Positions 12,974-25,377 are shown, counted from the first letter of the stretch. The stretch is 32,000 nt of DNA from Oryzomonas sagensis (GCF_008802355.1 NZ_VZRA01000003.1:324374-356373); one strand, 5' to 3'. Notes: a model not told the origin generated them from the letters alone. Program-made: numbers and translations.

Positions 12974-13136
12974 TTACTTTCAATAAATACAGATATGCCG
13001 AGAAAAAATGTGTGGCTGCCCGGAAATATCCCCATCGGTTTGGCATACAGATATTCACATTATGTTGTAATAATGGTATGAAATACCTGCCCATTGTTTG
13101 CGGATGGAATCCCCCTGATTAGCGGAGAAGGCATTC

Positions 13137-14351
13137 ATGCCGTCAGATTCCCTGGATCGTCTCACCATCGACAAATCCCGCCACCCCTCTCACAAACGGG
13201 GCGCGGGCAAGCGCACGCGTCTTTGGGGCGTTGTTTTCGTCGTGATCGCCGCCGGAGTCGTACTGCTGGCAGTGCAGAGGCGCTCCGTCTCCATCGAAAC
13301 CACCAATGTCTCCCAGGTATTTCCGACCCAGTCATTTACCCTGTTGAACGCCAGTGGATATGTGGTGGCCCAACGAAAGGCGGCGGTGGCCGCCAAGACC
13401 ACCGGCCGGTTGGAATGGCTGGGGGTCGAGGAGGGGAGCCGGGTTACGACCGGCCAGGTTATTGCCCGGCTGGAGAACAAGGACCTGGATGCGGCCGTGC
13501 GGCAGAACAAGGCGGCCGTGCAGAGCGCCCGGTCTGCACTTGACCAGGTCAAGGCGGAGCTGGTCGACGCCAAACAGGCGTACCTGCGTGAGAAGGAGTT
13601 GCTGAGCCAGGGGATCGTCGCCAAGTCCGAATACGATGCGGCCTACGCGCGCTACAAGAAGGCCGTTGCCGGCGTTGCGGAGGCGGAAGCCGGCATCCAC
13701 GTTGCCCTCGCCGCGCTGAAAGGGGCGACCGTAAGCTACGATTACAGCCTGATCCGGGCGCCGTTCGATGCCGTTGTCTTGACCAAGAATGCCGATGTGG
13801 GTGACATCATCACCCCCCTGGGGGCGGCGGCCAATGCCAAGGCGGCCGTGGTGTCCATAGCGGACCTCGGGTCGCTTGAGGTGGAGGCCGATGTCTCCGA
13901 ATCAAACCTGGCGGTGGTGAAGCCGGGGCAGCCCTGCGAGGTCACCCTGGATGCGCTGCCCAACACCCGGTTCCGCGGCGTCGTGCACACCATCGTCCCG
14001 ACGGCCGACCGCACCAAGGCCTCGGTCATGGTCAAGGTGCGCTTCGTGGACACCGATCCCCACATCTTGCCGGAGATGAGCGCCAAGGTGGCCTTCCTGG
14101 AGCGGGAAGCCCGCAAGGCGGACCAGCGGCCGCGCATCGCCGTCAAACCGTCGGCAATCGTCGCCTCCGGCGGTCGCCAGGGGGTCTATCTCGTCACGGG
14201 GGATCGCGTGGTCTTCACGCCGATTACCCGCGGCGCCCCGCTGGGCGATCTGGTGGAGGTAGGCGGGGTAAAGTCCGGCGATCGGGTCGCGCTCAAGCCC
14301 TTGGATAAACTGAAGGACGGGGCCAGGATCCGTCTGGCCGGGGAAAAATAG
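13137..14351 (+). CDS. efflux transporter periplasmic adaptor subunit (HlyD/MFP, MacA-like), 404 aa
   Basis: N-terminal TM anchor, coiled-coil hairpin (LDAAVRQNKAAVQSARSALDQVKAELVDAKQAY...), lipoyl/beta-barrel-like motifs (LIRAPFDAVVLTKNADVGD). RBS GGAGAAGG. Confidence 0.8.
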   Translation: MPSDSLDRLTIDKSRHPSHKRGAGKRTRLWGVVFVVIAAGVVLLAVQRRSVSIETTNVSQVFPTQSFTLLNASGYVVAQRKAAVAAKTTGRLEWLGVEEGSRVTTGQVIARLENKDLDAAVRQNKAAVQSARSALDQVKAELVDAKQAYLREKELLSQGIVAKSEYDAAYARYKKAVAGVAEAEAGIHVALAALKGATVSYDYSLIRAPFDAVVLTKNADVGDIITPLGAAANAKAAVVSIADLGSLEVEADVSESNLAVVKPGQPCEVTLDALPNTRFRGVVHTIVPTADRTKASVMVKVRFVDTDPHILPEMSAKVAFLEREARKADQRPRIAVKPSAIVASGGRQGVYLVTGDRVVFTPITRGAPLGDLVEVGGVKSGDRVALKPLDKLKDGARIRLAGEK

Positions 14352-14354
14352 GAA

Positions 14355-15056
14355 ATGGCCGACTCCGGGGAACGGCGGGTCGTCGTCAGTATCCGCAACG
14401 CAGCCAAGTCCTACCTGCGGGGCAGCCAGGTGGTGCCGGTTCTGGAGGATCTCTCCTTCGAGATCTTCCAGGGGGAGTTCCTGGCGCTGATGGGGCCGTC
14501 CGGGTCGGGCAAGAGCACCCTGCTCAACCTGATTGCCGGCATCGATTCGGTGGACAGTGGCGCTATCGTGGTGGATGGCGTGGATATCGCCACCCTGGGG
14601 GAACGGGAACTTGCCGACTGGCGCGCGGCCCACGTCGGCTTCATCTTCCAGTTCTACAACCTGATCCCGGTTCTGACCGCGTTTGAAAATGTGGAACTGC
14701 CGCTCCTTCTGACGCCGCTTAACCGCCGCGAACGCCGGGAGCATGTGGTGGCCGCCCTGGAGGTGGTCGGTCTGGCCGACCGCATGGAACATTACCCCTC
14801 CCAGCTTTCGGGCGGCCAGCAACAACGGGTCGCCATCGCCCGGGCCGTGGTGAGCGACCCCTCCATTCTGGTGGCCGACGAACCGACCGGCGATCTGGAC
14901 CGGGTTTCCGCCGAGGAGATCCTGCACCTGATGACGCACCTGAACAGCGCGTTCGGCAAGACGATCATCATGGTCACCCACGACCCCCGCGCCGCCGAGA
15001 AGGCCCATACCGTCAGGCACCTGGAAAAGGGCGTGTTGAGCGATGTTCCTTCTTAA
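14355..15056 (+). CDS. ABC transporter ATP-binding protein (MacB/LolD family), 233 aa
   Basis: Walker A GPSGSGKST, Q-loop, signature LSGGQQQRVAIARA, Walker B ILVADEPTGDLD, H-loop VTHD. Confidence 0.88.
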   Translation: MADSGERRVVVSIRNAAKSYLRGSQVVPVLEDLSFEIFQGEFLALMGPSGSGKSTLLNLIAGIDSVDSGAIVVDGVDIATLGERELADWRAAHVGFIFQFYNLIPVLTAFENVELPLLLTPLNRRERREHVVAALEVVGLADRMEHYPSQLSGGQQQRVAIARAVVSDPSILVADEPTGDLDRVSAEEILHLMTHLNSAFGKTIIMVTHDPRAAEKAHTVRHLEKGVLSDVPS

Positions 15057-16200
15057 GCTGCTTACCAGGAACGCCCTGCGCCACCATCTGCGCACCGGGC
15101 TCACCATTCTGGGAATCACCATCGCCATCCTGGCTTTCGGCCTGCTGCGGACGGTGGTCAGCGCCTGGTATGCCGGGGTCAACGCCTCGTCGGCCGCGCG
15201 GCTGATCTCGCGCAACGCCATCTCCCTGACCTTTTCCCTGCCCCTTTCCTATCTGGAGCGGATCAGACAGGTGGAGGGGGTCAAGTCGGTTTCCTATGCC
15301 AACTGGTTCGGGGGCATCTACATCACGGAAAAGAACTTTTTCCCGAATTTTGCCGTGGAGCCGAAAAGCTATTTCGAGTTGTATCCCGAATTCGTGCTCG
15401 CTCCCGAAGACAAACGGGCCTTTCTGGCCGACCGCAAGGGGTGTGTGGTCGGACGGAGACTGGCCGAGCGCTTCGGCTGGAAGGTGGGCGACAATATCAC
15501 GCTCAAGGGCACCATCTTTCCCGGCACATGGGAATTCGTCCTGCGCGGCATCTATCGCGGCGCGGAGAAGTCCACCGATGAGAACCAGTTCTTCTTTCAG
15601 TGGGACTATCTGAACGAGACCCTGAAGAAGACGGCCGCGCGCCGGGCCGACCAGCTCGGCGTCATCATCCTGGGGCTGAAAAACCCGCAAACAGCGGCGG
15701 AGACCTCCCTGGCGGTGGATGCGCGGTTCAGGAACTCCCTGGCCGAAACCCTGACCGAGACGGAAAAGGCCTTCCAGCTCAGCTTCGTCTCCATGACCGA
15801 GGCCATTGTTGTGGCCATCCGTATCGTGTCGTACGTGGTGATCGTCATCATCATGGCGGTGGTAGCCAATACCATGGCCATGACCGCCCGGGAGCGGATC
15901 GGCGAGTATGCCATCTTCAAGGCCCTGGGCTTTCGCGGGTACTACATTGCCGGCATGGTGTTCGGCGAGTCGTTGTTTATCGCCATGACCGGCTGTGCGG
16001 CCGGCATTGTCCTGACCTTTCCGGTGGCCGCCAGGTTCGGCAAGGTCATGGGTGCGTTCTTTCCCGTATTCCAGGTCGAGCGTTCAACCCTGTACCTGGA
16101 CGTGGTCTTCTGCCTGGTGGTCGGCCTGGTGGCGGCCGTTTTTCCCACCTGGCGGGCGGTCAGGATCGGGATTGCCGACGGCTTGCGCAGGATCGGATAG
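15043..16200 (+). CDS. ABC transporter permease, FtsX/MacB-type with periplasmic domain, 385 aa
   Basis: One TM, then a roughly 200-aa periplasmic domain, then three C-terminal TMs (FtsX fold pattern). ATG overlaps the ATPase stop by 14 nt. Confidence 0.8.
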   Translation: MFLLKLLTRNALRHHLRTGLTILGITIAILAFGLLRTVVSAWYAGVNASSAARLISRNAISLTFSLPLSYLERIRQVEGVKSVSYANWFGGIYITEKNFFPNFAVEPKSYFELYPEFVLAPEDKRAFLADRKGCVVGRRLAERFGWKVGDNITLKGTIFPGTWEFVLRGIYRGAEKSTDENQFFFQWDYLNETLKKTAARRADQLGVIILGLKNPQTAAETSLAVDARFRNSLAETLTETEKAFQLSFVSMTEAIVVAIRIVSYVVIVIIMAVVANTMAMTARERIGEYAIFKALGFRGYYIAGMVFGESLFIAMTGCAAGIVLTFPVAARFGKVMGAFFPVFQVERSTLYLDVVFCLVVGLVAAVFPTWRAVRIGIADGLRRIG

Positions 16201-16278
16201 TAGGAGGTCGTTGAAAAACAGCCATCAGGCCTTTGTCCTCGAAAGCCCCTTTGTGCGGCGTAGCGCCCCTCATCCTAT

Positions 16279-16331
16279 CCTTCTCCCCAAGGGAGAAGGG
16301 ATACCGTTACCCTCTCCCTCCGGGAGAGGGT
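16279..16331. repeat. tandem GC-rich extragenic palindromes (REP-like)
   Basis: CCTTCTCCC-caa-GGGAGAAGG (16279-16299) and ACCCTCTCCC-tcc-GGGAGAGGGT (16309-16331, 10-bp perfect stem), in the intergenic region after the permease. Confidence 0.7.
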
Positions 16332-16440
16332 GGCCAAAGGCCGGGTGAGGGCCTCCGCGGGGCTTGGCTCGTGGGTGCGGCGACCTGGCTATTTTTGCAC
16401 GACCTGAATTTTTGATCAGCCTGTTAGACGAGGTATATCC

Positions 16441-17808
<1,368 letters not shown>

Positions 17809-17811
<3 letters not shown>

Positions 17812-17823
17812 CAATAATTGTCA
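17809..17823. promoter_or_regulatory. candidate enhancer (UAS) palindrome for the sigma-54 activator
   Basis: TGACAAT-A-ATTGTCA, a perfect 7-1-7 palindrome overlapping the pilR stop codon and centred about 105 bp upstream of the -24 element. A further TGAC half-site is at 17831-17834. Confidence 0.35.
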
Positions 17824-17891
17824 GGAGTGGTGACGTGTTTGGCCCCGGTTCAGATAGTTGTATTGTGGGGGCTCTGTGTATATATATGTAA

Positions 17892-17904
17892 TATCAAATT
17901 GTTA
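17892..17904 (+). promoter_or_regulatory. candidate IHF site
   Basis: TATCAAattgTTA matches WATCAANNNNTTR. It lies in an AT-rich tract between the palindrome and the sigma-54 promoter. Confidence 0.4.
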
Positions 17905-17919
17905 TGTTTGTTTTAAAGC

Positions 17920-17935
17920 TGGCCTTCGATTTGCA
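17920..17935 (+). promoter_or_regulatory. sigma-54 (RpoN) -24/-12 promoter of the pilin operon
   Basis: TGGCCttcgatTTGCA. GG and GC are exactly 12 nt apart, as in TGGCAC-N5-TTGC. Predicted TSS is about 17946, 56 nt upstream of the pilin ATG. Confidence 0.75.
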
Positions 17936-18001
17936 TGACTAATTGCGTATTTGATCATTACTTGACCTGTAAAGAACACAACACAACGAAAGGGGAAAAA
18001 C

Positions 18002-18220
18002 ATGCTACAAAAAATGAAAAACAGAAAAGGCTTCACCCTGATCGAACTGCTGATCGTTGTTGCGATCATCGGTATCCTGGCTGCTATCGCCATCCCGCAG
18101 TTTAACGCGTATCGTCAAAAAGCTTACAACAGTGCTGCATCAAGCGATCTGAAAAACACGAAAACAGCGCTTGAATCCGTTATGGCAGATGCCCAGAAGT
18201 ACCCAACCAATCTCCAGTAA
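18002..18220 (+). CDS. pilA: truncated type IVa pilin, Geobacter PilA-N type (72-aa prepilin, 62-aa mature)
   Basis: MLQKMKNRKG/FTLIELLIVVAIIGILAAIAIPQF...: class III leader, G-1/F+1/E+5. Near-identical over most of its length to my recollection of G. sulfurreducens PilA. No globular C-terminal domain. RBS AGGGGA. Confidence 0.9.
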   Translation: MLQKMKNRKGFTLIELLIVVAIIGILAAIAIPQFNAYRQKAYNSAASSDLKNTKTALESVMADAQKYPTNLQ

Positions 18221-18250
18221 ATTTAATAATACGATGAAAGGGGCGTTCTA

Positions 18251-18625
18251 ATGAAAAGGAAAATCTTCGCAATGGCCGGACTTGTAGCCATGATAATGTC
18301 AAATGCTTCTCTGACATTAGCTGCTGCTGCAGCAGCAGGGAGTGAATTTGTTGCGGCGGCTGGAGCTTCAATCCAGTACAGTGTCGATGGTACAAATTAT
18401 AAAGATCTTGCCAAGCTGTCGAACAACGTGATTTTGCATTGCTTTATCAATTCTACCTCAGACCAATACTCGATAACATCGAAGCATACTCAGTCTGTTC
18501 GCGAGTACGGCACCTCTTCTCAAGATACCAAGATGTATTATCATGAACTTTCCACTGCTTCCACAGGTATGACCGGTCTTAATGCAGCTGATACCAGCCA
18601 GATGACCTCGTGGACATCTATGTAG
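18251..18625 (+). CDS. secreted Ser/Thr-rich protein, PilA-C-like partner of the short pilin, 124 aa
   Basis: Sec signal peptide MKRKIFAMAGLVAMIMSNASLTLA/AA. Located 30 nt after pilA-N with its own RBS (GAAAGGGG) and no intervening terminator. Assignment is by position (split-pilin synteny) only. Confidence 0.55.
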   Translation: MKRKIFAMAGLVAMIMSNASLTLAAAAAAGSEFVAAAGASIQYSVDGTNYKDLAKLSNNVILHCFINSTSDQYSITSKHTQSVREYGTSSQDTKMYYHELSTASTGMTGLNAADTSQMTSWTSM

Positions 18626-18644
18626 CATCTCCTTCCTACACCGT

Positions 18645-18674
18645 AACGGGATGCTTCGGCATCCCGTTTTTTTT
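18645..18674 (+). terminator. Rho-independent terminator after the pilin pair
   Basis: AACGGGATGC-ttcg-GCATCCCGTT followed by TTTTTT. The U-tract ends at the GGAG RBS of the next gene. Confidence 0.85.
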
Positions 18675-18685
18675 GGAGTTTCTTT

Positions 18686-20410
18686 GTGCAAAACCCTGCC
18701 GCTAGGATTCGAAATCAATCTCTCCTTATCATCATTATCCTGCTGAGCAGTTATTACCCCTCACTCTTTGCCCCCTTTAATTCCGTAGATGACGTCAAAA
18801 TGGTCAACCAGCTCATCAACGTTGACACCATTTCCCTTAAAGGTTTGTTCTTTCCCGGCGCCGGCGGACAATACTACCGTCCCCTGTTATTCCTCACGTT
18901 TCTGTTTGATAAATTCGTCTGGGGGGTGCAGGAAAGTTTCATGCACCTGGAGAATGTTTTATTTCATCTTGTCAATACTCTGCTGGTTTTTTGTCTTGCC
19001 CGGCAGTTCATAAAAGCATGGCGTTGGGATACGCAATATTTCCCTTTTGTTGTTGCCCTGCTGTTTGGTCTCCATCCCATAGCCACCGAACCGGTCAACT
19101 GGGTATCCGGGCGTACAGACCTCCTGGCCGGGGTATTCGTCCTCTCGGCAGTTTTGTTATTCACGCGGTCGATTCATATATCATCCTTTTGGCAAGGGGG
19201 TGCAGGTGCTTTCCTCTTACTGTGCGGGTGTCTATCAAAAGAAACCGCCCTGTTTGTTCTTCCGGTTCTATTGTTATGGTGCCTTGTCCCGCCACGAGAT
19301 TATGCCTGCATGGCTTCAGGACGCCTGCGGGCGTTTCTTTTTGCATCGTACCTCGCGTCAGGTTTTGCTTATTTGGTGATGCGTTGGTATGCCTTAAACG
19401 GTGGCGACAAGATTGTCAGTACCATGGCGAGTGGGGCAAGTAGTTCCGGTGCTGCGTTTGGCATATGGGACATGATTCGGGTCGGTCTCAAAACATCCGG
19501 TTTTTATTGTAAAAAACTGGTCGTACCCTTTCCGCTCAACTTCGGAATTATTGAAATATCGCCCCATTATATCTGGTTGGGGCTTCTGGTGTGTGTAGGG
19601 GGCTGTTATTGCCTGTATGCACGTACTACGGTCTCTTACCTTTTTATTGCCGCTTTTTGTCTGGTATCGCCCGCCTTTATTGTACCGCTGTTAAAGATTA
19701 CGTGGACCCCGGTCGCCGAACGGTATGCGTATATTGCTTCCGCACCCTTCCTCGTCGCTCTCTCGTTTCTGTTTATCCGCTGTTTGCGATCACGTTTGCC
19801 GCCCCTGGCAATTACGTTCTTTGTGGCCATTCTGCTCTTTTGTTCAGGTTTTGCCACAATCAAACGCAATGTCGTTTGGCAGGATAATGTATCATTGTTT
19901 GAAGATACCGTAAAAAAATCCCCCAATTTTCCGGCAGCAAAAAATGAGCTGGCTATTGCCCTAGTTGGCAGAGGAAAAACCGACGAGGCCAATAAGATAT
20001 TGCTTGCCAACAGCGGAGACGATACCCAGCCCTCATCCATAAATAAAATCAAGGTTGCCGTGAACAACGGCAGGTATGAGGAAGCATACAGGATGATGGG
20101 GGAGCGGAAAGCAAGAGGGGGGAAGGAGGACAAGGATTCCCTGGATCTTATGTACCTGATCAACGAACAACGGTTCATAGCTTCAAAAAGCGAGAGCCAG
20201 TCCCGGAAAATACGCATGGAAATGCTTACAATCCTGGGGAATCTTCATTCACTGTCGGGAGATCCGGTGTATTTCTACCGGATTGGACTGGTGCAATTAC
20301 GACTGGGGAACAGATTGGCTGCCAAACAATCTTTTGAGAGCGCATGGCGGAATTCAGCGCCAGACTGTTATTATCATAATGCCGCCAAGAAGCTTGCAGA
20401 GAGCTTGTGA
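18686..20410 (+). CDS. polytopic membrane protein with C-terminal TPRs, TMTC/PMT-like (GT-C fold) putative glycosyltransferase, 574 aa
   Basis: GTG start 7 nt after GGAG. The N-terminal pattern FNSVDDV...L..LFFPGAGGQYYRPLLFLTFLFDKFVWG...FMHLENVLFHLVNTLLVFCLAR matches the conserved loop-1 DD / YYRPL / H-x-N-x-x-x-H pattern of bacterial TMTC-like TPR proteins as I remember it. About 10 or more TM helices. The C-terminal 170 aa are soluble and TPR-like. Confidence 0.55.
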   Translation: MQNPAARIRNQSLLIIIILLSSYYPSLFAPFNSVDDVKMVNQLINVDTISLKGLFFPGAGGQYYRPLLFLTFLFDKFVWGVQESFMHLENVLFHLVNTLLVFCLARQFIKAWRWDTQYFPFVVALLFGLHPIATEPVNWVSGRTDLLAGVFVLSAVLLFTRSIHISSFWQGGAGAFLLLCGCLSKETALFVLPVLLLWCLVPPRDYACMASGRLRAFLFASYLASGFAYLVMRWYALNGGDKIVSTMASGASSSGAAFGIWDMIRVGLKTSGFYCKKLVVPFPLNFGIIEISPHYIWLGLLVCVGGCYCLYARTTVSYLFIAAFCLVSPAFIVPLLKITWTPVAERYAYIASAPFLVALSFLFIRCLRSRLPPLAITFFVAILLFCSGFATIKRNVVWQDNVSLFEDTVKKSPNFPAAKNELAIALVGRGKTDEANKILLANSGDDTQPSSINKIKVAVNNGRYEEAYRMMGERKARGGKEDKDSLDLMYLINEQRFIASKSESQSRKIRMEMLTILGNLHSLSGDPVYFYRIGLVQLRLGNRLAAKQSFESAWRNSAPDCYYHNAAKKLAESL

Positions 20411-20528
20411 TAATAACGGTGGCAAGGTATACTAATAAAATTTTTATAAGCCTCTCATCCCTGACGGATCGATGAATTTGTAGGGGCGTTTTCTTGTCCA
20501 TGAATTTTACCAAGGAGACCAGACCAAT

Positions 20529-21323
20529 ATGATGAATGTCATTCTTGTTACCCTGAAAGGGGTTTTCCGTGACCGTGTTTTCTTGGGGATTGCGGCTCTA
20601 TTGGTGCTGTTTCTGTTCATTCCATCCGCTGCATCTCTGTCAATGCGTCAGGTGACGGAACTATCCGTCACGCTGTCATTATCGCTTATTTCCTTTATCT
20701 TGTTATTGCTGGCGGTTTTTTTGGGTGCAACTTCCATTTGGAGGGATATGGAGCGACGCTATACCTTTAGCGTTCTCAGTCTTCCGATCAATCGCAGTTT
20801 CTACTTGTTTGGACGTTTTTTCGGTCTGGCTCTGTTTCTGGTTCTTACTTCCGCAGCACTGGGGGCGGTCACGTGTTTGGTGGTTAAGGTAACGTCGGGC
20901 ATCTACCCCCCTGATCGGCCAATCATATTGGGGTATTTGGCATTAGCTGTTATATTTGCCACCCTCAAATATATTCTGTTGATTTCTGTGGCTATTTTGT
21001 TATCAACCGTCAGCACCTCCTTCTTTTTGCCGATCTTCGGTACCATTTGTGTTTTTATCGCTGGCGGCATAACGCAGCAAGTGTACGAATATATTAACTC
21101 GCCTGTAGCACAGACAGCTATTTCACCCGTTTTCAAAATAGCAGCGACAGCGGTATATTATCTCCTACCAAATTTGGCTGGTTTTGATCTGAAGGTAAAT
21201 GCCATTTATAGTATTGCACCTGATCCGCGGGGATTATGTATGACATTCGCCTATTTCCTGGCCTATACTGCCATTTTATTGGGTTGTGCGTCATTGCTGT
21301 TCAGCCGGAGGGAGTTAAAGTGA
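20529..21323 (+). CDS. ABC-2 type (NosY/COG1277-like) transporter permease, 264 aa
   Basis: RBS AAGGAGA. Six predicted TM helices with a loop after TM1. No soluble domains. An ABC ATPase lies two genes downstream. Confidence 0.6.
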   Translation: MMNVILVTLKGVFRDRVFLGIAALLVLFLFIPSAASLSMRQVTELSVTLSLSLISFILLLLAVFLGATSIWRDMERRYTFSVLSLPINRSFYLFGRFFGLALFLVLTSAALGAVTCLVVKVTSGIYPPDRPIILGYLALAVIFATLKYILLISVAILLSTVSTSFFLPIFGTICVFIAGGITQQVYEYINSPVAQTAISPVFKIAATAVYYLLPNLAGFDLKVNAIYSIAPDPRGLCMTFAYFLAYTAILLGCASLLFSRRELK

Positions 21324-22195
21324 CCCGCGATATAACGCCTGTCAGTCTGGTGATCGCAGGTTTACTTGTCTATAGCCTTCTCGTTTGCCCTTTCACTGAC
21401 TATATGCGTAACAAGCCGATTGAAGAAAAACTTGGCTTCGTGCCAAGCGTTAAGTTGCTGAAACCGTTGAGCGTTGACCAGAAGGAGTTGGTTGGAGCCT
21501 CGCTGGCCATGAAGGTGCTGATGTATTATGGCGGCGTTCTCGACAAAATGCAGGGCAGCAAGGTAATTGCCGAATCACCGGATCTTCAGGGAATGTCCCG
21601 GCTGCTTCATGGCGCGGTGCAGCTCGATCCATATAATATGGATGCCTACTATTTCGCACAGGGTTTTCTAACGTGGGATGCCCAACAATTCAACGTGGCC
21701 AACAACATGCTCCAATACGGTATGAAATATCGCACCTGGGATTGGTATCTACCGTTTTACGCTGGTTTTAATTACGCCTATTTTTTGAAGGACTTCAAAA
21801 AAGCCGCGGAATACTACAGCAAGGCTGGAGAACTGTCCGGCCAGGAATTGCATATCAACCTCGCGGGCAGATACCTGCAAGAGTCAGGACAGACAAGTCT
21901 TGCTATCGGGTATCTTAGGGCAATGATTGCGACCTCGCGCAACGAAACGGCACGAAAATCATTCGGAACGAGACTTAAGGCCTTTGAGGGCGTGCGAAAA
22001 ATAGAAATCGCCCGCGACCGTTTTCGGGAAAAGCAGGGACGAGAACCCTTTTCGGTGGCGGAATTGTTCAAATCGGGTTTTTTGGAAGCATTGCCCAGTG
22101 ATCCCTATGGAGGGCAGTTTTATTTACAGTCCGACGGCACAGTCGCAACGACAAGTAAGTTTGCGTTCCCGCAAGCAAAAAAGGGAGTTAAGTGA
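21320..22195 (+). CDS. membrane-anchored helical-repeat (TPR-like) protein with GspG/pseudopilin-like C-terminal motif, 291 aa
   Basis: GTG at 21320 (RBS GGAGGGA, GTGA overlap with the permease stop) is preferred over the track's ATG at 21236. N-terminal TM VSLVIAGLLVYSLLVCPF. TPR-like FKKAAEYYSKAGEL. The C-terminus KQGREPFSVAELFKSGFLEALPSDPYGGQFYLQSDGTV resembles the T2SS GspG motif (G-YP...L...GYL..LP-DPWG--Y-Y). Confidence 0.5.
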   Translation: MTRDITPVSLVIAGLLVYSLLVCPFTDYMRNKPIEEKLGFVPSVKLLKPLSVDQKELVGASLAMKVLMYYGGVLDKMQGSKVIAESPDLQGMSRLLHGAVQLDPYNMDAYYFAQGFLTWDAQQFNVANNMLQYGMKYRTWDWYLPFYAGFNYAYFLKDFKKAAEYYSKAGELSGQELHINLAGRYLQESGQTSLAIGYLRAMIATSRNETARKSFGTRLKAFEGVRKIEIARDRFREKQGREPFSVAELFKSGFLEALPSDPYGGQFYLQSDGTVATTSKFAFPQAKKGVK

Positions 22196-23109
22196 TGAAC
22201 ATGCTGGATATCCGCGGATTGTCAAAAACATTTATTGGCAAGCGTCGGCTGCGTATTGAAGCGCTCAGGAATCTCACACTCTCCATAACGCAAGGCGAAA
22301 TCTTCGGCTTCCTCGGCCCCAACGGCGCGGGTAAGAGTACGACCATCAAGTGCCTGATGGGGCTGATCCGGCCGACGGCCGGCACGGCAACCATCATGGG
22401 CGAGCCGATCGGCAGCGTTGCGTCCCGGACTAAAATCGGTTTCCTGCCCGAGAACCCGGCCTTTTACGATTATCTATCCGCCGAGGAGTACCTCCGGTTT
22501 GTGGGCAAGACGTTCAAGATGCCGGAAGACCTCCTGGACCGCCGCTCGGACGAAACGCTGAAGCAGCTTGAACTGTGGGATGCCCGCAAACGTCCCATGC
22601 GCGGCTACAGCAAGGGGATGGTGCAGCGGGTCGGGCTGGCGCAAGCCTTGATCCACGATCCCGACCTGTATATCCTGGACGAGCCCATGAGCGGGCTCGA
22701 CCCCATCGGCAGGGCGTTGGTGAAGGATATTATTCTCGACCTGAAGAAGCGGGGCAAGAGTGTCTTCTTCAGCACCCACATCACCGATGATGTGGAAAAG
22801 GTCTGCGACAGGGTAGGGGTGATCGTCAAAGGCCAGCTCGAGGCCCTGGACAGCGTCGAGAATATCGTGCGGCAAGGGATCGAAGGGTACATCGTGCAGA
22901 CCCGGCTGAACCAGGGAAACCACGAGCCTTTGGCCGGCTTTGCCGTCACGCGCACGAATGAAACCTTTATCGAGTACTTTGTGCCGGTGGCGGGCTTCAA
23001 TGAATTCATGGCGCTGGCCGGCCGGCATTCGGTGGAGGTTACCCTGGTCGAAACAAAACGCAAGGATCTTGAGAGCTTCTTCCTGGGAATCGTGGAAAAG
23101 AGGAAATAG
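22192..23109 (+). CDS. ABC transporter ATP-binding protein (ABC-2/CcmA-type), 305 aa
   Basis: Walker A GPNGAGKST, signature variant YSKGMVQRVGLAQAL, Walker B LYILDEPMSGLD, H-loop STHI, plus a roughly 80-aa C-terminal extension. The start may be GTG 22192, ATG 22195 or ATG 22201. Confidence 0.85.
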   Translation: MMNMLDIRGLSKTFIGKRRLRIEALRNLTLSITQGEIFGFLGPNGAGKSTTIKCLMGLIRPTAGTATIMGEPIGSVASRTKIGFLPENPAFYDYLSAEEYLRFVGKTFKMPEDLLDRRSDETLKQLELWDARKRPMRGYSKGMVQRVGLAQALIHDPDLYILDEPMSGLDPIGRALVKDIILDLKKRGKSVFFSTHITDDVEKVCDRVGVIVKGQLEALDSVENIVRQGIEGYIVQTRLNQGNHEPLAGFAVTRTNETFIEYFVPVAGFNEFMALAGRHSVEVTLVETKRKDLESFFLGIVEKRK

Positions 23110-23164
23110 CCGGTAACGTCCCTATAAGCTTCATTGTCCCTGTGCGGAATCAGTACTGCCAATT

Positions 23165-23210
23165 TGTTCGGGGCGAGTATCCGGAATGAACCGGAAACTC
23201 GCCCCGAACA
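23165..23210. other. very stable stem-loop without U-tract
   Basis: TGTTCGGGGCGAGT...ACTCGCCCCGAACA, a 14-bp perfect stem. It is extended after an A.A mismatch by TCCGG/CCGGA around the loop AATGAA. A C-rich tract follows, not T-rich. Confidence 0.7.
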
Positions 23211-23279
23211 TCTCCCCCTGCGTGTCCTCCCCCGATCTAGTCGAAATCAGCCGATATTTCACCAGAAGCGCGCTTCCGC

Positions 23280-23308
23280 TTGACGTACGGGATACTATCG
23301 GGTATAAA
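23280..23308 (+). promoter_or_regulatory. sigma-70-type promoter of the zur-znuCB operon
   Basis: TTGACG (23280-23285), 17-nt spacer, TATAAA (23303-23308). An AT-rich imperfect palindrome AAATAATTTTCATTT (AAAT-N7-ATTT) follows and is a possible Zur/Fur operator. Confidence 0.5.
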
Positions 23309-23344
23309 TAAAAATAATTTTCATTTAATTGCGGATAATTCTTT

Positions 23345-23800
23345 ATGAATAGAGAACAGGGGCGCGACATCCTCAAACGGCTGAATATGAAGGTCACTCC
23401 CAAGCGGCTGGAGGTTATGTGTTGCCTGGGGAGCGAACCGCTCTACCTCTCCGCCGATGAGGTCTGGCACCGCATCAAGGACCGGGTGGCCAGCATCGGG
23501 CTGCCCACGGTGTACCGCATCCTCGATGAACTGGCCGAGGCCGGCGTCATTACCCGCATCTTCCTGGCCGACCGCAAGCAGTACTATTTTCTCTGCGCCA
23601 ATCAGGACCACCACCATCACCATTTTGTCTGCGAGTCCTGTCGGCGGGTGGAGGACCTGGGGCAGTGCGCGCTCGGCGAGGGGACACTCGATGCGGTCCA
23701 GCGTTCGGGCGGGCGGGTAACGTCCCATATCCTTCAGATCAATGGGGTGTGCGCTACCTGCAGCACCCCGCGTGGAGGGGCGGCATGCCGGACGAAATAG
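23345..23800 (+). CDS. zur: Fur-family metalloregulator, probably Zur, 151 aa
   Basis: Winged-helix N-terminus (KVTPKRLEVMCCL...SADEVWHRI...GLPTVYRILDELAEAGVI). HHHHHFVCESC and VCATC provide the metal-binding and structural CxxC pairs. Sits directly upstream of ZnuC/ZnuB-like genes. Confidence 0.7.
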   Translation: MNREQGRDILKRLNMKVTPKRLEVMCCLGSEPLYLSADEVWHRIKDRVASIGLPTVYRILDELAEAGVITRIFLADRKQYYFLCANQDHHHHHFVCESCRRVEDLGQCALGEGTLDAVQRSGGRVTSHILQINGVCATCSTPRGGAACRTK

Positions 23801-24537
23801 TCAGGACGGAGCGGCTCTGTTGCAGTTACCGGACAGGCCGGGTGCTGGAGGATATTTCCATTTCGGTGGAGGCGGGCGATTACGTCGGGATTGTCGGCCC
23901 CAACGGCTCGGGCAAGAGCACGCTGGTGCGCGCACTGATGGGATTAAGCGCCATCAGCGACGGCACCGCCTCCCTGTTCGGCGTGCCGTGCAGCCGTTTC
24001 AACGCTTGGGGCCGGATCGGGTATCTCCCCCAAAGCCTGCATCTGCTCAACCCCATATTCCCGGCCACCGTGGCCGAAACGGTCGGACTCGGCCTCCTGT
24101 CGTTGAAGCGCTTCCCCCGCCGGTTGACCGCTGCCGACAGAACGAAGGTCGATGCCGTTCTCGAACAATTGGATATTTGCGATATAAAATCTAAACTGAT
24201 AGGTGAACTTTCCGGCGGTCAGCAACAGCGCGTTCTTCTGGCCCGCGCCCTGGTCAACGACCCGGATCTGCTGATCCTGGACGAGCCGACTGCGGCGCTC
24301 GACCCCGAGATGCGCGAACGCTTCTATTCCCTGATGGGAGAGATAAACCGTTCCCGGCAGGTTACGGTGCTGCTGGTGACCCATGATACCGGCGCCATCG
24401 GGAAATACGCCTCGAAGATGCTGTATCTGGATAAGCGTATGCTCTTTTACGGCAATTTCGAGGAATTCTGCCGCTCCACGGATATGTCCGCCCTGTTTGG
24501 CGAGTATTCCCAACACCTGATGTGCCACAGGCATTAA
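23785..24537 (+). CDS. znuC: zinc/metal ABC transporter ATP-binding protein, 250 aa
   Basis: ATG at 23785 (RBS GGAGGGG) is preferred to the track's 23665. Walker A GPNGSGKST, LSGGQQQRVLLARAL, LLILDEPTAALD, VTHD. Confidence 0.75.
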   Translation: MPDEIVRTERLCCSYRTGRVLEDISISVEAGDYVGIVGPNGSGKSTLVRALMGLSAISDGTASLFGVPCSRFNAWGRIGYLPQSLHLLNPIFPATVAETVGLGLLSLKRFPRRLTAADRTKVDAVLEQLDICDIKSKLIGELSGGQQQRVLLARALVNDPDLLILDEPTAALDPEMRERFYSLMGEINRSRQVTVLLVTHDTGAIGKYASKMLYLDKRMLFYGNFEEFCRSTDMSALFGEYSQHLMCHRH

Positions 24538-24543
24538 CGAACC

Positions 24544-25377
24544 ATGAATTTCATCGAAATACTCTCATACGGTTTCATCCAGCGGGCACTTCTGGCGGGG
24601 ACGCTGATCGCCGTGCTCTGTTCGGTGCTGGGCGTGTTCCTCGTGCTGCGGCGGCTTTCCCTGATCGGGGACGGCCTGGCCCATGTCACCTTCGGCGGCA
24701 CCGCCATCGCCCTGTCGCTCAAGCTCTATTCCGCCTCGGCCCTGCTGGTGTCGCTGCCGGTCGTGCTGCTCTCGTCGCTGGGCATCCTCAAGCTGACGGA
24801 AAAGGCGCGCCTGAGCGGCGACAGCGCCATCGGCATCGTGTCGGCGCTGGGGATTTCGGCGGGTATCATCCTGGCGAGCGTAGGGGGGGGGTACAACGTT
24901 GACCTGCTGAGCTACCTGTTCGGCAATATCCTCTCCATAACCTCCCAGGAGGTGGGCATTGCCGCCGTGCTGTTCTGCGTGGTGGTGCTGCTGTTGTCCC
25001 TCTTTTTCAACGACCTGCTCGCCATCGCCTTCGACGAGGAGTTGGCCCGGGTCTCCGGCATACGGACCGCCACCATCAATGCGGTGCTGGTGCTGCTGAC
25101 GGCCCTGTCGGTGGTCCTGGCGATGAAATTGGTGGGGATCATGCTGATCTCGTCGCTCTTGATCCTGCCGGCGGTATCGGCCCTGCAGCTGGCCCGCAGC
25201 TTCAAGTCCTGCGTTGTCCTGGCGGCCCTCCAGGGGGGCTGCTCGGTCGTGGCCGGCATCTTTCTGTCGTTCGCCACCAACCTGCCCACCAGTGCGATGA
25301 TCGTACTCCTCAATCTAGCCTTTTTCGGCCTGGCCTTCCTTGCCCGGCGCTGCGTGCAGCCTAAAAGTAGTAGCTGA
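24544..25377 (+). CDS. znuB: ABC-3 family metal (zinc) transporter permease, 277 aa
   Basis: MNFIEILSYGFIQRALLAGTLIAVLCSVLGVFLVLRRLSLIGDGLAHVTFGG is a typical ZnuB/ABC-3 N-terminus. Eight or more TM helices. Confidence 0.75.
   Translation: MNFIEILSYGFIQRALLAGTLIAVLCSVLGVFLVLRRLSLIGDGLAHVTFGGTAIALSLKLYSASALLVSLPVVLLSSLGILKLTEKARLSGDSAIGIVSALGISAGIILASVGGGYNVDLLSYLFGNILSITSQEVGIAAVLFCVVVLLLSLFFNDLLAIAFDEELARVSGIRTATINAVLVLLTALSVVLAMKLVGIMLISSLLILPAVSALQLARSFKSCVVLAALQGGCSVVAGIFLSFATNLPTSAMIVLLNLAFFGLAFLARRCVQPKSSS

Follow-up and report, generated by a model that had tools for sequence, protein, structure and literature searches.

A Predicted GT-C Fold Glycosyltransferase with a TPR Domain beside the Split Pilin Genes of Oryzomonas sagensis: A Candidate for Pilin Glycosylation

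The Pilin Locus and Its Genes

The window (the whole stretch of DNA analyzed here, 32,000 nucleotides from Oryzomonas sagensis, GCF_008802355.1 NZ_VZRA01000003.1:324374-356373) contains a type IV pilin locus in which the genes of a split pilin are followed by the gene of a large membrane protein and by an ABC-2/TPR trio (Table 1). The pilR gene at the head of the locus is 97% identical to its Oryzomonas japonica ortholog. Downstream of pilR, 67 nt before the ATG of pilA-N, lies TGGCCTTCGATTTGCA, the sole match to TGGC-N7-TTGCA in the 32-kb window, a pattern found at least once in 25 of 100 shuffles. The pattern and position of this element suggest that it may be the pilA-N promoter.

Table 1. 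Features of the pilin locus, in positions of the 32,000-nucleotide window.
Feature	Position	Strand	Basis or content
pilR, sigma-54-dependent response regulator	16441..17811	+	Pfam Response_reg, Sigma54_activat (E 1.2e-73), HTH_8
Candidate sigma-54 type -24/-12 promoter element TGGCCTTCGATTTGCA, upstream of pilA-N	17920..17935	+	Pattern match
pilA-N, short type IV pilin (72-aa prepilin, 62-aa mature)	18002..18220	+	N_methyl E 1.7e-11
Low-GC hypervariable cassette	18130..22291	.	pilA-N C-terminal half, pilA-C, GT-C gene, permease, TPR protein
pilA-C (geopilin domain 2), Ser/Thr-rich candidate acceptor, 124 aa	18251..18625	+	PDB match
Intrinsic terminator (10-bp GC-rich stem, T8 tail) between pilA-C and GT-C gene	18645..18676	+	
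GT-C fold glycosyltransferase (predicted) with C-terminal TPR domain, XapA/GSU1498-like	18686..20410	+	ORF, homologs, AlphaFold, Foldseek
Membrane (putative catalytic) domain, residues 1-400, ~11 TM helices, N-terminus cytoplasmic	18686..19885	+	Model, Foldseek, PMT_2
Codons of the invariant acidic pair D35-D36 (periplasmic loop 1), a possible catalytic or metal site	18788..18793	+	Alignment
Y274-x6-P281-F282-P283-L-N-F-x-I288 motif, periplasmic loop 4	19505..19549	+	Alignment
Periplasmic (predicted) TPR-like domain, residues 401-574, five helical hairpins	19886..20410	+	Pfam in homologs, profile, model
ABC-2 family permease, XapB-like, PilI-like in role	20529..21323	+	ABC2_membrane_2 E 8.8e-8
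Membrane-anchored TPR protein with C-terminal pseudopilin (GspG)-like head, XapC-like	21320..22195	+	TPR, PDB matches
ABC transporter ATPase, XapD/GSU1501-like	22192..23109	+	Pfam ABC_tran E 3.4e-29

The PilA-N gene of most related loci is 62-82% identical to pilA-N here. The adjoining PilA-C protein of the window matches the "Geopilin domain 2 protein" of PDB 9egp_B (E 5.9e-6). The first-pass annotation had described this PilA-C-like protein as very rich in serine and threonine, and its composition bears this out, with these residues making up 28% of the mature part and 38% of the last 40 residues. In the orthologs, the proportion is 20 to 36%, and a C-terminal W-T-S-M motif is conserved.

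The GT-C gene starts 60 nt past pilA-C. The strong terminator found between the two genes had been absent from the earlier account of the locus. The T-run of this hairpin ends 10 nt before the GTG start codon and is followed directly by a GGAG ribosome-binding site, which leaves no room for a promoter belonging to the gene itself, so that transcription must read through the hairpin. Most of the related loci likewise have a hairpin after pilA-C.

The open reading frame is real, as first described, and encodes a 574-aa product in 1725 bp. An identical 574-aa protein is present in a public protein collection, which also contains 527 homologs at E<=1e-3, and the existence of hundreds of full-length homologs rules out a spurious reading frame. 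An antisense reading frame (19636-20217) was rejected as a gene, given that it lies wholly within the well-supported plus-strand gene. The superfamily is very large, with 92,565 matches at E<=1e-3 and 1,409 at E<=1e-30 in a profile search of 1.84 billion representatives, and the protein has no match in NCBIfam.

The trio downstream, which accompanies the GT-C gene across the related loci, resembles the pilGHI genes of Myxococcus. Among the 81 sequences compared (80 related loci and the window), 65 have the permease gene next to the GT-C gene. The start of the TPR protein (21320) was taken from the gene call in Geobacter sp. FeAm09 (288 aa), and the best seven matches in the PDB for its C-terminal ~90 residues are all GspG (best E 3.4e-4). 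The ABC ATPase is 88% identical to its O. japonica ortholog, and zur-znuCB follows the module in the window.

Fold, Topology and Conserved Motifs of the GT-C Protein

The full-length AlphaFold model (pLDDT 86.9, pTM 0.82) and the model of the TM domain alone (pLDDT 89.1, pTM 0.91) were compared with the PDB in Foldseek. The best 11 matches of the full-length model are PglB and STT3, and the best 24 matches of the TM-domain model all have the GT-C fold, as had been claimed for this protein, with TM-scores of up to 0.56. The latter include AglB, STT3, PglB, PIGU, AftD, ArnT, Pmt4, and EmbA/B/C, with AftA, PimE, and ALG3 ranked lower, while matches with other folds have a probability of <0.42 and a TM-score of <0.2. 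Comparison with the PMT, TMTC, and ArnT families supports the GT-C fold, and not the closer TMTC/PMT assignment: Pmt4 (TM-score 0.50) is no better a match than STT3, PglB, or EmbC, and no TMTC or PMT domain is matched. ArnT (5f15) has the weakest TM-score of the GT-C matches (0.35).

Sequence searches of the solved structures gave no GT-C match, and the fold was resolved by structure prediction and Foldseek only. The window protein matches no GT-C Pfam family, PMT_2 (PF13231) included, and neither the single protein nor a TM-domain-only profile recovered any solved GT-C structure, while the search of the solved structures with a full-length family profile was swamped by TPR proteins. Seven of the eight orthologs tested nevertheless exceed the PMT_2 gathering threshold of 26.1 bits (26.3-32.8 bits, residues ~77-228), and PMT_2 is matched by 12 of 31 family members at E<=0.01. 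There is no TMTC_DUF1736 (PF08409) match in the 31 members at E<=0.01, or in eight of them at E<=1, and no PMT (PF02366) or MIR match in the window protein or the family members (31, and the eight tested). An identity of the Wzy_C/TfpO type was also rejected, given that neither the window protein nor its relatives match Wzy_C (PF04932). As the models match only GT-C enzymes in the PDB, and all but one of the orthologs tested pass the PMT_2 threshold, the predicted structure identifies the protein as a real GT-C glycosyltransferase of the inner membrane.

From the sequence, the positive-inside rule predicts 11 TM helices with the N-terminus inside, a topology that places the C-terminal TPR domain in the periplasm. 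In the model, residues 401-574 form ten helices, that is, five hairpins. The TPR_19 match of the window protein is sub-threshold (E 5.4e-4), while 29 of 31 homologs match TPR families, and the family profile matches the TPR domain of OGT (E 1e-8), in line with the TPR domains originally proposed for this protein. This is the most divergent part of the protein, with a mean pairwise identity of 33%, against 40% for the TM domain.

The first-pass annotation had pointed to a DD motif in the first loop, and FNSVDDV does occupy residues 31-37, directly after TM1 and in a loop predicted to be periplasmic, with D35 and D36 invariant in all 31 aligned homologs. The YYRP sequence, also noted at the outset, lies at residues 63-66 and is likewise invariant (Y63-Y64-R65-P66, loop 1). 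The histidine motif exists, with its spacing misread by one residue: it is not H-x-N-x3-H but H87-x2-N90-x3-H94, in which H87 and N90 are invariant, and H94 nearly so. Other conserved residues on the predicted periplasmic side are H130-P131-x2-T134-E135, R143, and D145 in loop 2, K185 (invariant) and E186 (nearly invariant) in the predicted loop 3, and W340-T-P-x2-E345-R346-Y347 in loop 5, while Y274, P281, P283, L284, F286, and I288 of the loop-4 motif are invariant in the 31 homologs, and F282 is invariant or nearly so. In all, more than 40 periplasm-facing or membrane residues are invariant, the DD pair included. A distant pilin-linked homolog aligns with an hhalign probability of 97.1%, with the DD, HPLNT, and SKE motifs in register.

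Related Loci and the Variable Cassette

Gene order was compared in 80 related loci, with each count limited to the loci with enough flanking sequence. In 57 of 59 such loci, the end of a PilA-N gene is found less than 1.5 kb before the module, and the pilin-linked loci span the Geobacteraceae, Desulfuromonadaceae, Desulfobulbales, and Nitrospirae-labelled MAGs. This linkage, together with a position equivalent to that of tfpW and tfpO in Pseudomonas aeruginosa, agrees with the original placing of the gene in the slot of the pilin glycosyltransferases.

The minimal loci consist of the pilins and the GT-C gene only (L031), or of these and a UbiA-like gene (L069). A metagenome scan that started from pilins recovered mostly ordinary long pilins of unrelated bacteria, and only one short-pilin locus (L081) had enough flank; the module is present there, too (reverse association, n=1). 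A gammaproteobacterial locus has a distant GT-C homolog next to canonical pilins, pilB, and a GT2 gene. At L107, a 577-aa Wzy_C protein of the TfpO/PglL type (E 5e-21) is found beside pilins and a similar ABC/TPR trio, while at L140 a xapB-D-like trio occurs inside pilus clusters without polysaccharide genes.

Genes of the GT2, GT4, or Wzm/Wzt types lie downstream in 29 of the 39 loci with at least 4 kb of downstream sequence, and a UbiA-family gene follows in at least 54 of 64 loci. The UbiA-like enzyme scores 206.5 bits, against a cut-off of 207, as a decaprenyl-phosphate phosphoribosyltransferase, and a donor gene of this type in the relatives points to a pentofuranose donor, as in TfpW and Emb, rather than mannose. 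Given this, and the lack of TMTC_DUF1736 and PMT matches, the specific kinship with the TMTC/PMT O-mannosyltransferases proposed in the first-pass annotation is not supported. No GT2, Wzm, or UbiA gene lies near the pilins and the four-gene module in the window, O. japonica (L023), or Geobacter sp. FeAm09 (L161), and the 32-kb window has no donor-synthesis gene. Among the cluster representatives of the flanks of the related loci, inspected by eye, no homolog of DprE1/DprE2 was recognized, and there were resemblances to Wzx-type flippases, methyltransferases, a heptosyltransferase, an ABC exporter, and a TPR-containing glycosyltransferase-like protein.

Between otherwise near-identical genomes, a single cassette that comprises the C-terminal half of pilA-N, pilA-C, the GT-C gene, and two ABC genes has been exchanged as a unit. 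The GC content of this segment is 0.45-0.49, against ~0.60 in the flanks, and in the comparison between the window and O. japonica, the flanks have 93-95% nucleotide identity, while that of the cassette is <70% or undetectable. In a mirror-tree comparison, the correlation between PilA-C and the GT-C protein (rho 0.28-0.32) is no higher than that of other pairs.

Possible Functions and Known Systems

The best-supported function of the GT-C enzyme is the glycosylation of the adjacent split type IV pilin, a tentative reading, with a little less than an even chance. If the enzyme works as solved GT-C enzymes do, a sugar linked to polyprenyl phosphate would bind at the periplasmic face of the membrane, where the D35-D36 pair may either activate the acceptor hydroxyl or hold a metal ion, while the TPR domain would hold the protein acceptor. 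The likeliest acceptor would be the Ser/Thr-rich PilA-C, either alone or in a PilA-N/PilA-C heterodimer, prior to its entry into the pilus. In most relatives, the likely donor would be a polyprenyl-phospho-pentofuranose (ribose, or arabinose derived from ribose), made by the adjacent UbiA-type phosphoribosyltransferase-like enzyme, the gene of which is not in the window. The GT-C gene would be expressed by read-through of the pilA-C terminator from a PilR/sigma-54-driven pilin promoter, and the enzyme would be a functional analog of the TfpW of P. aeruginosa.

In favor of pilin glycosylation are the fold, the linkage with the pilins, the joint cassette, the architecture shared with TfpW, and the UbiA-like neighbor of the relatives, and PilA could not be detected in a xapD mutant of Geobacter sulfurreducens (bioRxiv 10.1101/114900). 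The only modification of a Geobacter pilin that the literature yielded, a glycerophosphate on Tyr32 of PilA-N (review), is not one expected of a GT-C enzyme, and in the literature found, cryo-EM papers on PilA-N/PilA-C filaments aside, no glycan is documented on a Geobacter pilin. A number of observations count against the glycosylation of the pilin: the terminator between pilA-C and the GT-C gene, the assignment of xapA to an exopolysaccharide cluster, the lack of special co-variation with PilA-C, the frequency of GT2, GT4, and Wzm genes downstream, the lack of a GT-C Pfam match for the window protein and of a solved GT-C structure in the sequence searches, the lack of a donor-synthesis gene in the window, and the lack of a recognizable DprE1 or DprE2 among the flank representatives inspected.

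A wider reading, somewhat doubtful as a whole, is that the xap genes by Geobacter pilA form a module for pilin biogenesis and modification. This module would comprise a TfpW-like XapA that pentofuranosylates PilA-N/PilA-C, a PilGHI-like ABC transporter with a pseudopilin-headed TPR partner, and, as XapE, a polyprenyl-phosphate sugar synthase that depends on PRPP. Strains would exchange the pilin head, the transferase, and some of the ABC system as a hypervariable cassette, like the pilin-allele cassettes of P. aeruginosa, and the published exopolysaccharide and cytochrome-anchoring phenotypes of the xap mutants would be secondary to the loss or mis-modification of the pilus.

The main rival to pilin glycosylation, itself unlikely, is that the enzyme decorates or extends an exported "Xap" polysaccharide in the periplasm, with pentofuranose from a polyprenyl-phosphate donor. 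The glycan would be built by cytoplasmic GT2/GT4 enzymes and exported by Wzm/Wzt, on the model of mycobacterial arabinogalactan synthesis (GlfT, Wzm/Wzt, UbiA/Rv3806c, then Aft/Emb), and the position beside the pilins would reflect the co-regulation of surface structures. The polysaccharide genes downstream are consistent with this, as are the UbiA-like neighbor, an enzyme type of the arabinan pathway, and the structural matches with EmbA/B/C, AftA, and AftD. TPR domains are found in polysaccharide export proteins too, although GT-C enzymes that act on polysaccharides, such as Emb and AftD, are known to carry carbohydrate-binding domains rather than TPRs. The linkage with the pilins (57/59), however, is tighter than that with the polysaccharide genes (29/39), and the loci where the pilins accompany the four-gene module without GT2, Wzm, or UbiA nearby (the window, L023, and L161) or the GT-C gene only (L031), and the pilus clusters of L140, all argue against a polysaccharide substrate. 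The G. sulfurreducens cluster GSU1498-GSU1508 was named xap, and the loss of xapD is reported to halve the exopolysaccharide, but this phenotype could be indirect, given that the xapD mutant lacks PilA, and that the loss of pilG/H/I in Myxococcus xanthus eliminates the pili, with exopolysaccharide lost as a secondary effect.

It is improbable that the enzyme is a periplasmic O-glycosyltransferase for other surface or secreted proteins, such as OmcS, OmcE, OmcZ, or minor pilins. Like those of TMTC and OGT, the TPR domain could accommodate a range of protein substrates, but the partner conserved across orders and phyla, including the Nitrospirae- and Desulfobulbales-labelled lineages, is the pilin pair, and the window has no cytochrome gene. 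Extra densities on the OmcE filaments of G. sulfurreducens have been read as glycans (preprint), although the glycosylation genes discussed adjoin omcE, not pilA. The xapD mutant also has an extra, higher-mass OmcS band (bioRxiv 10.1101/114900), which would suit a cytochrome target. Very improbable, in turn, are an ArnT-like action on a lipid acceptor (lipid A or the LPS core) and a non-catalytic role as a TPR scaffold or chaperone that, with the ABC trio, serves the pilin. ArnT-like enzymes, too, fall under PMT_2, and ArnT is among the structural matches, but it is the weakest of these and has no TPR domain. The pilin-like head of the neighboring TPR protein suggests that proteins are handled by proteins in this module, in keeping with a scaffold, but more than 40 invariant residues, including the DD pair, point to a conserved active site rather than a scaffold.

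The pili and pilus-dependent filaments of Geobacter are central to the long dispute on microbial "nanowires", and the xap locus is routinely cited as an exopolysaccharide system that anchors cytochromes. If XapA does glycosylate PilA-N/PilA-C, a pilin modification has been overlooked that may affect the surface chemistry of the filament, its stability, and its detection by antibodies or mass. The phenotypes of the xap mutants (no PilA, mislocalized OmcS, and less exopolysaccharide) would then need to be reread as pilus defects. The pilin-linked GT-C/TPR transferases would also extend beyond the few gammaproteobacteria with TfpW to the Desulfuromonadales, Desulfobulbales, and Nitrospirae-labelled MAGs, in a new partnership with an ABC transporter. 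Pilin glycosylation is directly testable in G. sulfurreducens, for which genetic tools and cryo-EM maps (6VK9, 7TGG, and 9EGP) exist.

The GT-C protein shares with TMTC (GT105) and PMT (GT39) the GT-C fold and, in the first extracytoplasmic loop, a pair of acidic residues. With TMTC it also shares a C-terminal TPR domain, predicted here to lie on the extracytoplasmic side, but no member matches a TMTC_DUF1736, PMT, or MIR domain, and the donor gene of the relatives is of the phosphoribosyltransferase type, not a polyprenyl-phosphate mannose synthase. Some orthologs have been named "protein O-mannosyl-transferase" automatically by JGI. The TfpO/PilO/PglL enzymes, which glycosylate Ser/Thr of the pilin in the periplasm, are also encoded beside pilin genes, but belong to a different family (Wzy_C, using undecaprenyl-diphosphate oligosaccharides), with no PF04932 match here. 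The M. xanthus genes pilG, pilH, and pilI, as described, likewise encode an ABC-2 permease with its ABC ATPase and an accessory protein right after pilA, and both pilins and pili depend on them. The mutants in these genes, which also lack exopolysaccharide, are paralleled by the xapD mutants, with their lack of PilA and loss of exopolysaccharide; descriptions of the M. xanthus pil cluster mention no GT-C gene.

Synteny and gene size make the GT-C gene the ortholog of G. sulfurreducens xapA (GSU1498), based on the KN400/PCA gene table, the window ORFs, and the gene order of the 80 loci. The G. sulfurreducens order (pilR, pilA, GSU1497, xapA, xapB, xapC, xapD) is that of the window, and xapA, xapB, and xapC have 1749, 792, and 855 bp, against 1725, 795, and ~876 bp here, where the xapD-like gene has 918 bp. 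The genes after xapD in G. sulfurreducens are xapE-K (UbiA-like, GT2, Wzm, and others), whereas in the window this place is taken by zur-znuCB. XapA is annotated only as "membrane protein, putative", and xap stands for "extracellular anchoring polysaccharide". Neither this orthology nor the TM-plus-TPR architecture of TfpW itself had figured in the first-pass annotation.

The closest described analog, on architecture and position, appears to be TfpW, the GT-C pilin D-arabinofuranosyltransferase of P. aeruginosa group IV strains (Pa5196/PA7). A search seeded with a pilin-linked homolog (L114) returned unnamed marine gammaproteobacterial proteins, with no protein named TfpW among the 120 best matches. 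The two were compared by published description. The GT-C protein differs from TfpW in its length (574 aa, against 646 aa), in the distal proline of the loop-4 motif, which is not conserved, while P283 is, and in its setting, with a pilin split into PilA-N and PilA-C, an accompanying ABC-2/TPR trio, no DprE1/DprE2 seen nearby (flank representatives, by eye), and a pilin glycan that is only predicted. The donor of TfpW is made in a D-arabinofuranose pathway, via an Rv3806c-like phosphoribosyltransferase and DprE1/DprE2, and an Rv3806c-like gene adjoins the GT-C gene in most relatives, although it is missing in the window. [quoted passage not shown] The GT-C protein shares this topology, as predicted, with the DDx of loop 1, the Y-x6-P-F part of the loop-4 motif in matching position and spacing, and the TPR domain, and its gene, too, lies downstream of a pilin gene, to which it is linked.

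Fold and predicted topology of the GT-C protein

The open reading frame delimited by the first-pass annotation was confirmed in its coordinates, GTG start, and length. The public collection contains an identical protein and 527 homologues at E<=1e-3, of which the closest named one (75% identity) comes from Geobacter sp. FeAm09 and is annotated as hypothetical. In an alignment of 31 sequences, D35-D36, Y63-Y64-R65-P66, H87, and N90 are invariant, along with approximately 45 further positions, and these residues include the DD and YYRP motifs noted at the outset. The histidine motif is also present, with a spacing one residue away from that first described, its real form being H87-x2-N90-x3-H94. 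The window protein alone gives a weak signal for the proposed TPR domain (TPR_19, E 5.4e-4, under the Pfam threshold), which is clear at the level of the family, in which 29 of the 31 members match TPR families, and in the structure model, where residues 401–574 form ten helices.

Sequence methods alone fail to place this protein, given that it matches no GT-C family in Pfam and no NCBIfam entry, and that no solved GT-C structure was recovered by either the single sequence or a profile of the transmembrane part only. The full-length AlphaFold model (pLDDT 86.9, pTM 0.82) was compared with the PDB by Foldseek, and the 11 best matches were PglB and STT3. With residues 1–400 modeled separately (pLDDT 89.1, pTM 0.91), the 24 best matches were all GT-C-fold proteins, that is, AglB, STT3 (TM-score 0.56), PglB, PIGU, AftD, ArnT, Pmt4, and EmbA/B/C, with AftA, PimE, and ALG3 ranking lower, while matches to other folds had a probability of <0.42 and a TM-score of <0.2. 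The PMT_2 family, in addition, is matched above Pfam’s own threshold by seven of the eight orthologues tested (residues ~77–228). These matches indicate that the protein, as modeled, has the GT-C fold, in agreement with the structural similarity expected from the earlier reading, and it is very probably a GT-C glycosyltransferase.

The narrower assignment to the TMTC/PMT enzymes stands only in part. The combination of a GT-C region with an extracytoplasmic TPR domain agrees with it, as do the PMT_2 matches, and some members of the family have been named automatically as ‘protein O-mannosyl-transferase’ by JGI, whereas no TMTC_DUF1736, PMT, or MIR domain was found by Pfam in any member scanned, and the structural match to Pmt4 is no better than that to STT3, PglB, or EmbC.

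The topology was predicted from hydropathy and the positive-inside rule, with 13 Lys/Arg in the ~55 residues of the predicted cytoplasmic segments and 13 in the ~140 residues of the periplasmic loops. The predicted arrangement has a cytoplasmic N-terminus, 11 transmembrane helices, and a periplasmic TPR domain, which would place all the invariant polar residues in periplasmic loops.

Features of the window and of related loci (coordinates of L-numbered loci refer to those loci; periplasmic loops follow the predicted topology)
Feature	Position	Strand	Remarks
CheR–PAS–histidine kinase fusion	8035-11532		1165 aa; upstream of enolase
MacA/MacB-type tripartite ABC exporter	13137-16200		5' of pilR
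pilR			upstream of the GT-C gene
Sigma-54 type -24/-12 element	17920-17935		TGGCCTTCGATTTGCA; 67 nt upstream of the pilA-N ATG, downstream of the PilR gene
PilA-N prepilin	18002-18220	+	72 aa; upstream of the GT-C gene; N_methyl, E 1.7e-11
PilA-C	18251-18625	+	124 aa; upstream of the GT-C gene
W-[TS]-x-[ML] end of PilA-C	18611-18625
Intrinsic terminator, strong	18645-18676		3' of pilA-C; 10-bp stem, T8 tail
GT-C gene	18686-20410	+	GTG start; 574 aa
Periplasmic loop 1			DD, YYRP
Periplasmic loop 2			HP-x2-TE, R143, D145
Periplasmic loop 3			K185 (invariant), E186 (nearly invariant)
Periplasmic loop 4			Y274-x6-P-F-P-L-N-F
Periplasmic loop 5			W-T-P-x2-E-R-Y
ABC-2 permease	20529-21323
XapC-like TPR protein	21320-22195		TM anchor, TPR repeats, C-terminal GspG-like segment
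ABC ATPase	22192-23109
UbiA-family gene, L066	7671-8522		example of the gene after the module
Pilus cluster, L107	5768-10761		metagenome
Pilin and GT-C/TPR locus, L114	3347-6995		marine gammaproteobacterial
Pilus cluster, L140	7379-11142		metagenome, high-GC contig

Gene neighborhood of the split pilin

A scan of species-representative genomes recovered 80 related loci, from the Geobacteraceae, Desulfuromonadaceae, Desulfobulbales, and Nitrospirae-labelled MAGs, among others. The consensus order is pilC, pilS, pilR, pilA-N, and pilA-C, followed by a four-gene module composed of the GT-C gene, an ABC-2 permease, a TPR protein of ~290 aa, and an ABC ATPase, in which the GT-C gene stands first in 30 loci, including the window, and last in 34. 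The pilin-adjacent position proposed initially recurs: of the 59 loci with enough flank, 57 have a PilA-N gene that ends <1.5 kb before the module, and the two exceptions are the most distant homologues. The GT-C gene may also be found with the pilins and little else: one locus contains only pilA-N, pilA-C, another pilA-N, and the GT-C gene, and a different one has pilA-C, the GT-C gene, and a UbiA-like gene, the ABC trio being absent. Some loci carry the GT-C gene twice, in tandem in L047 and on either side of the pilin and ABC genes in L048.

The 124-aa protein of the window is identified as PilA-C by its match to PDB 9egp_B, ‘Geopilin domain 2 protein’ (E 5.9e-6), and its description as rich in Ser/Thr is borne out by a Ser+Thr content of 28% in the mature part (38% in the last 40 residues; 20–36% in orthologues). 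The PilA-C orthologues (L001–L079) are very divergent, yet they share a W-[TS]-x-[ML] C-terminus, which comes after a stretch rich in Ser/Thr/Ala/Gly, and this end could be a site of recognition or modification.

Downstream of the module, GT2, GT4, or Wzm/Wzt genes are found in 29 of the 39 loci with enough flank, and a UbiA-family gene follows directly in at least 54 of 64. The best NCBIfam match of this UbiA-like gene is decaprenyl-phosphate phosphoribosyltransferase (206.5 bits, against a cut-off of 207). In the window, O. japonica, and FeAm09, the pilins and the four-gene module are followed by zur-znuCB (in FeAm09, a PAS sensor-kinase gene intervenes), and no UbiA or polysaccharide gene lies beside the module. 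These three genomes also have a tripartite exporter upstream of pilR (an HlyD-like protein, an ABC ATPase, and an FtsX/MacB permease), and lack the usual pilB-pilT-pilC-pilS at that position, leaving pilR without an adjacent sensor kinase. Farther upstream, the window encodes a protein in which a CheR methyltransferase is fused with PAS domains and a histidine-kinase ATPase domain.

In the KN400/PCA gene table of G. sulfurreducens, pilR (GSU1495), pilA (GSU1496), and GSU1497 are followed by xapA (GSU1498; ‘membrane protein, putative’, 1749 bp), xapB (792 bp), xapC (855 bp), the ABC ATPase xapD (GSU1501), xapE (GSU1502; putative polyprenyl-phosphate phosphoglycosyltransferase), the glycosyltransferase xapF, and xapG, an ABC-2 membrane protein. 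Judged by position and size, the GT-C gene appears to be the orthologue of xapA, and the UbiA-like gene beside the module corresponds to xapE. The gene family is already named, without an assigned function: the cluster is cited as an ‘extracellular anchoring polysaccharide’ system, and the literature searched assigns no activity to GSU1498.

The start of the XapC-like TPR protein is placed at 21320, as suggested by the FeAm09 gene call, within a longest open reading frame that begins at 21236. Its C-terminal ~90 residues are similar to the head domain of GspG, a type II secretion pseudopilin, with the top seven PDB matches all being GspG (best E 3.4e-4), and its D-P-Y-G-G aligning with D-P-W-G of GspG.

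A metagenome search seeded on pilins, rather than on the GT-C gene, found similar ABC trios inside the pilus clusters of unrelated bacteria. In L140, the order is pilR, pilA, pilA, ATPase, permease, TPR protein, and pilMNOPQ, and in L107, it is pilA, ATPase, permease, TPR protein, and pilA2, and then a Wzy_C (TfpO/PglL-type) enzyme. The TPR part and a pilin are separate, abutting genes in L107, and this may indicate that genes were fused or split relative to XapC. Just one short-pilin locus in this search had sufficient flank (L081, n=1), and it carries the full module. Locus L114 contains pilB, two canonical pilins with disulfide bonds, a GT2 gene, and a divergently transcribed, distant GT-C/TPR homologue of 654 aa, which adjoins the GT2 gene and aligns with the GT-C protein (hhalign probability 97.1%, E 6e-11), the DD, HPLNT, and SKE motifs being in register. 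This homologue belongs to an unannotated family of ~2,800 members from SAR86 and Pseudomonadales MAGs.

Transcription and allelic divergence of the cassette

The sigma-54 type element upstream of pilA-N is the sole match of its kind within the window. The T-run of the terminator ends 10 nt before the GTG of the GT-C gene and is directly followed by its ribosome-binding site, GGAG, which leaves no space for a separate promoter, so that the GT-C gene must be transcribed by read-through. Such read-through would yield much pilin and little GT-C enzyme. A stable hairpin recurs 3' of pilA-C in most of the related loci.

The organism of the window is closely related to Oryzomonas japonica, with a nucleotide identity of 93–95% at positions 13002–18130 and 22291–25000. 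Between them, over 18130–22291, identity is <70% or undetectable, and this segment, which has been exchanged as one block between the two genomes, takes in the C-terminal half of pilA-N together with pilA-C and the genes for the GT-C protein, the permease, and the TPR protein. One breakpoint lies within pilA-N, past the region for its conserved N-terminal helix, and the ABC ATPase gene has the other at its 5' end. The GT-C proteins of the two genomes are 37% identical, compared with 97% for PilR and 88% for the ATPase, and the GC content of both alleles is low (0.45–0.49 vs. ~0.60 in the flanks). The fastest-evolving proteins of the locus are PilA-C (mean pairwise identity 36%) and the GT-C protein (40% in the transmembrane part, 33% in the TPR part). 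In a mirror-tree test, PilA-C showed no particular correlation with the GT-C protein (rho 0.28–0.32; permease and TPR protein, 0.80), and the cassette therefore shows co-inheritance, rather than specific co-evolution.

Candidate acceptors and comparison with known systems

The favored explanation, at slightly less than an even chance for the whole chain of inference, is a TfpW-like enzyme dedicated to the split pilin, which would act in the periplasm with a polyprenyl-phosphate-linked sugar and have PilA-N/PilA-C as its acceptor. In most relatives, the donor would probably be a PRPP-derived pentofuranose on polyprenyl-phosphate. Three points weigh against a pilin acceptor: the 32-kb window has no donor gene, the only pilin modification reported is glycerophosphate on Tyr32, and no Geobacter pilin glycan was found in the literature searched, which excluded key cryo-EM papers.

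The main rival, that the enzyme decorates an exported polysaccharide in an arabinogalactan-like pathway, is backed by the xap literature and the frequent GT2/Wzm neighbors, and is given roughly a one-in-four chance. The linkage to the pilin is nevertheless tighter (57/59 vs. 29/39), and some genomes, that of the window included, have no neighboring polysaccharide genes. The xapD mutant of G. sulfurreducens has undetectable PilA and mislocalized OmcS, and its polysaccharide phenotype is likely secondary to the loss of pili. In M. xanthus, an ABC transporter encoded beside pilA is needed for pilins and pili alike, and mutants in it are devoid of exopolysaccharide as well. Acceptors among other proteins, cytochrome filaments for instance, are improbable relative to the pilin, and a lipid or scaffold role is more improbable still. 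If the pilin reading is true, the xap mutant phenotypes would be read differently, and this can be tested in G. sulfurreducens.

The new elements here are a GT-C/TPR family tied to the split pilin in several orders and phyla, its partnership with a PilGHI-like ABC system in which a pseudopilin head is borne by the TPR component, and the inclusion of the GT-C gene in a hypervariable cassette. The cassette resembles the pilin-plus-accessory-gene cassettes of P. aeruginosa, and the three genes downstream of the GT-C gene behave like pilG/H/I of Myxococcus, with the trios of L140 and L107 fitting this system rather than a polysaccharide exporter. Together with the loss of PilA in the xapD mutant, the GspG-like segment, the L114 homologue, and the module of L081, they speak for a role of the module in pili.

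Pilin-linked GT-C/TPR transferases have been known until now only from TfpW of P. aeruginosa, and no protein of that name was found among the best 120 matches of a search seeded from the L114 homologue. [quoted passage not shown] Periplasmic loop 1 holds an essential DDx motif and loop 4 a Y-x6-P-F-x7-P motif, the C-terminal part is a large periplasmic TPR domain, and the donor is made by an Rv3806c-like enzyme and DprE1/E2. In the family of the GT-C protein, Y274-x6-P281-F282 of loop 4 is invariant or nearly so and the distal proline is not conserved, and an Rv3806c-like gene lies beside the module in most relatives but not in the window. The predicted topology of the GT-C protein, its DD pair in loop 1, its TPR domain, and the place of its gene after the pilin genes agree point by point with the TfpW description.
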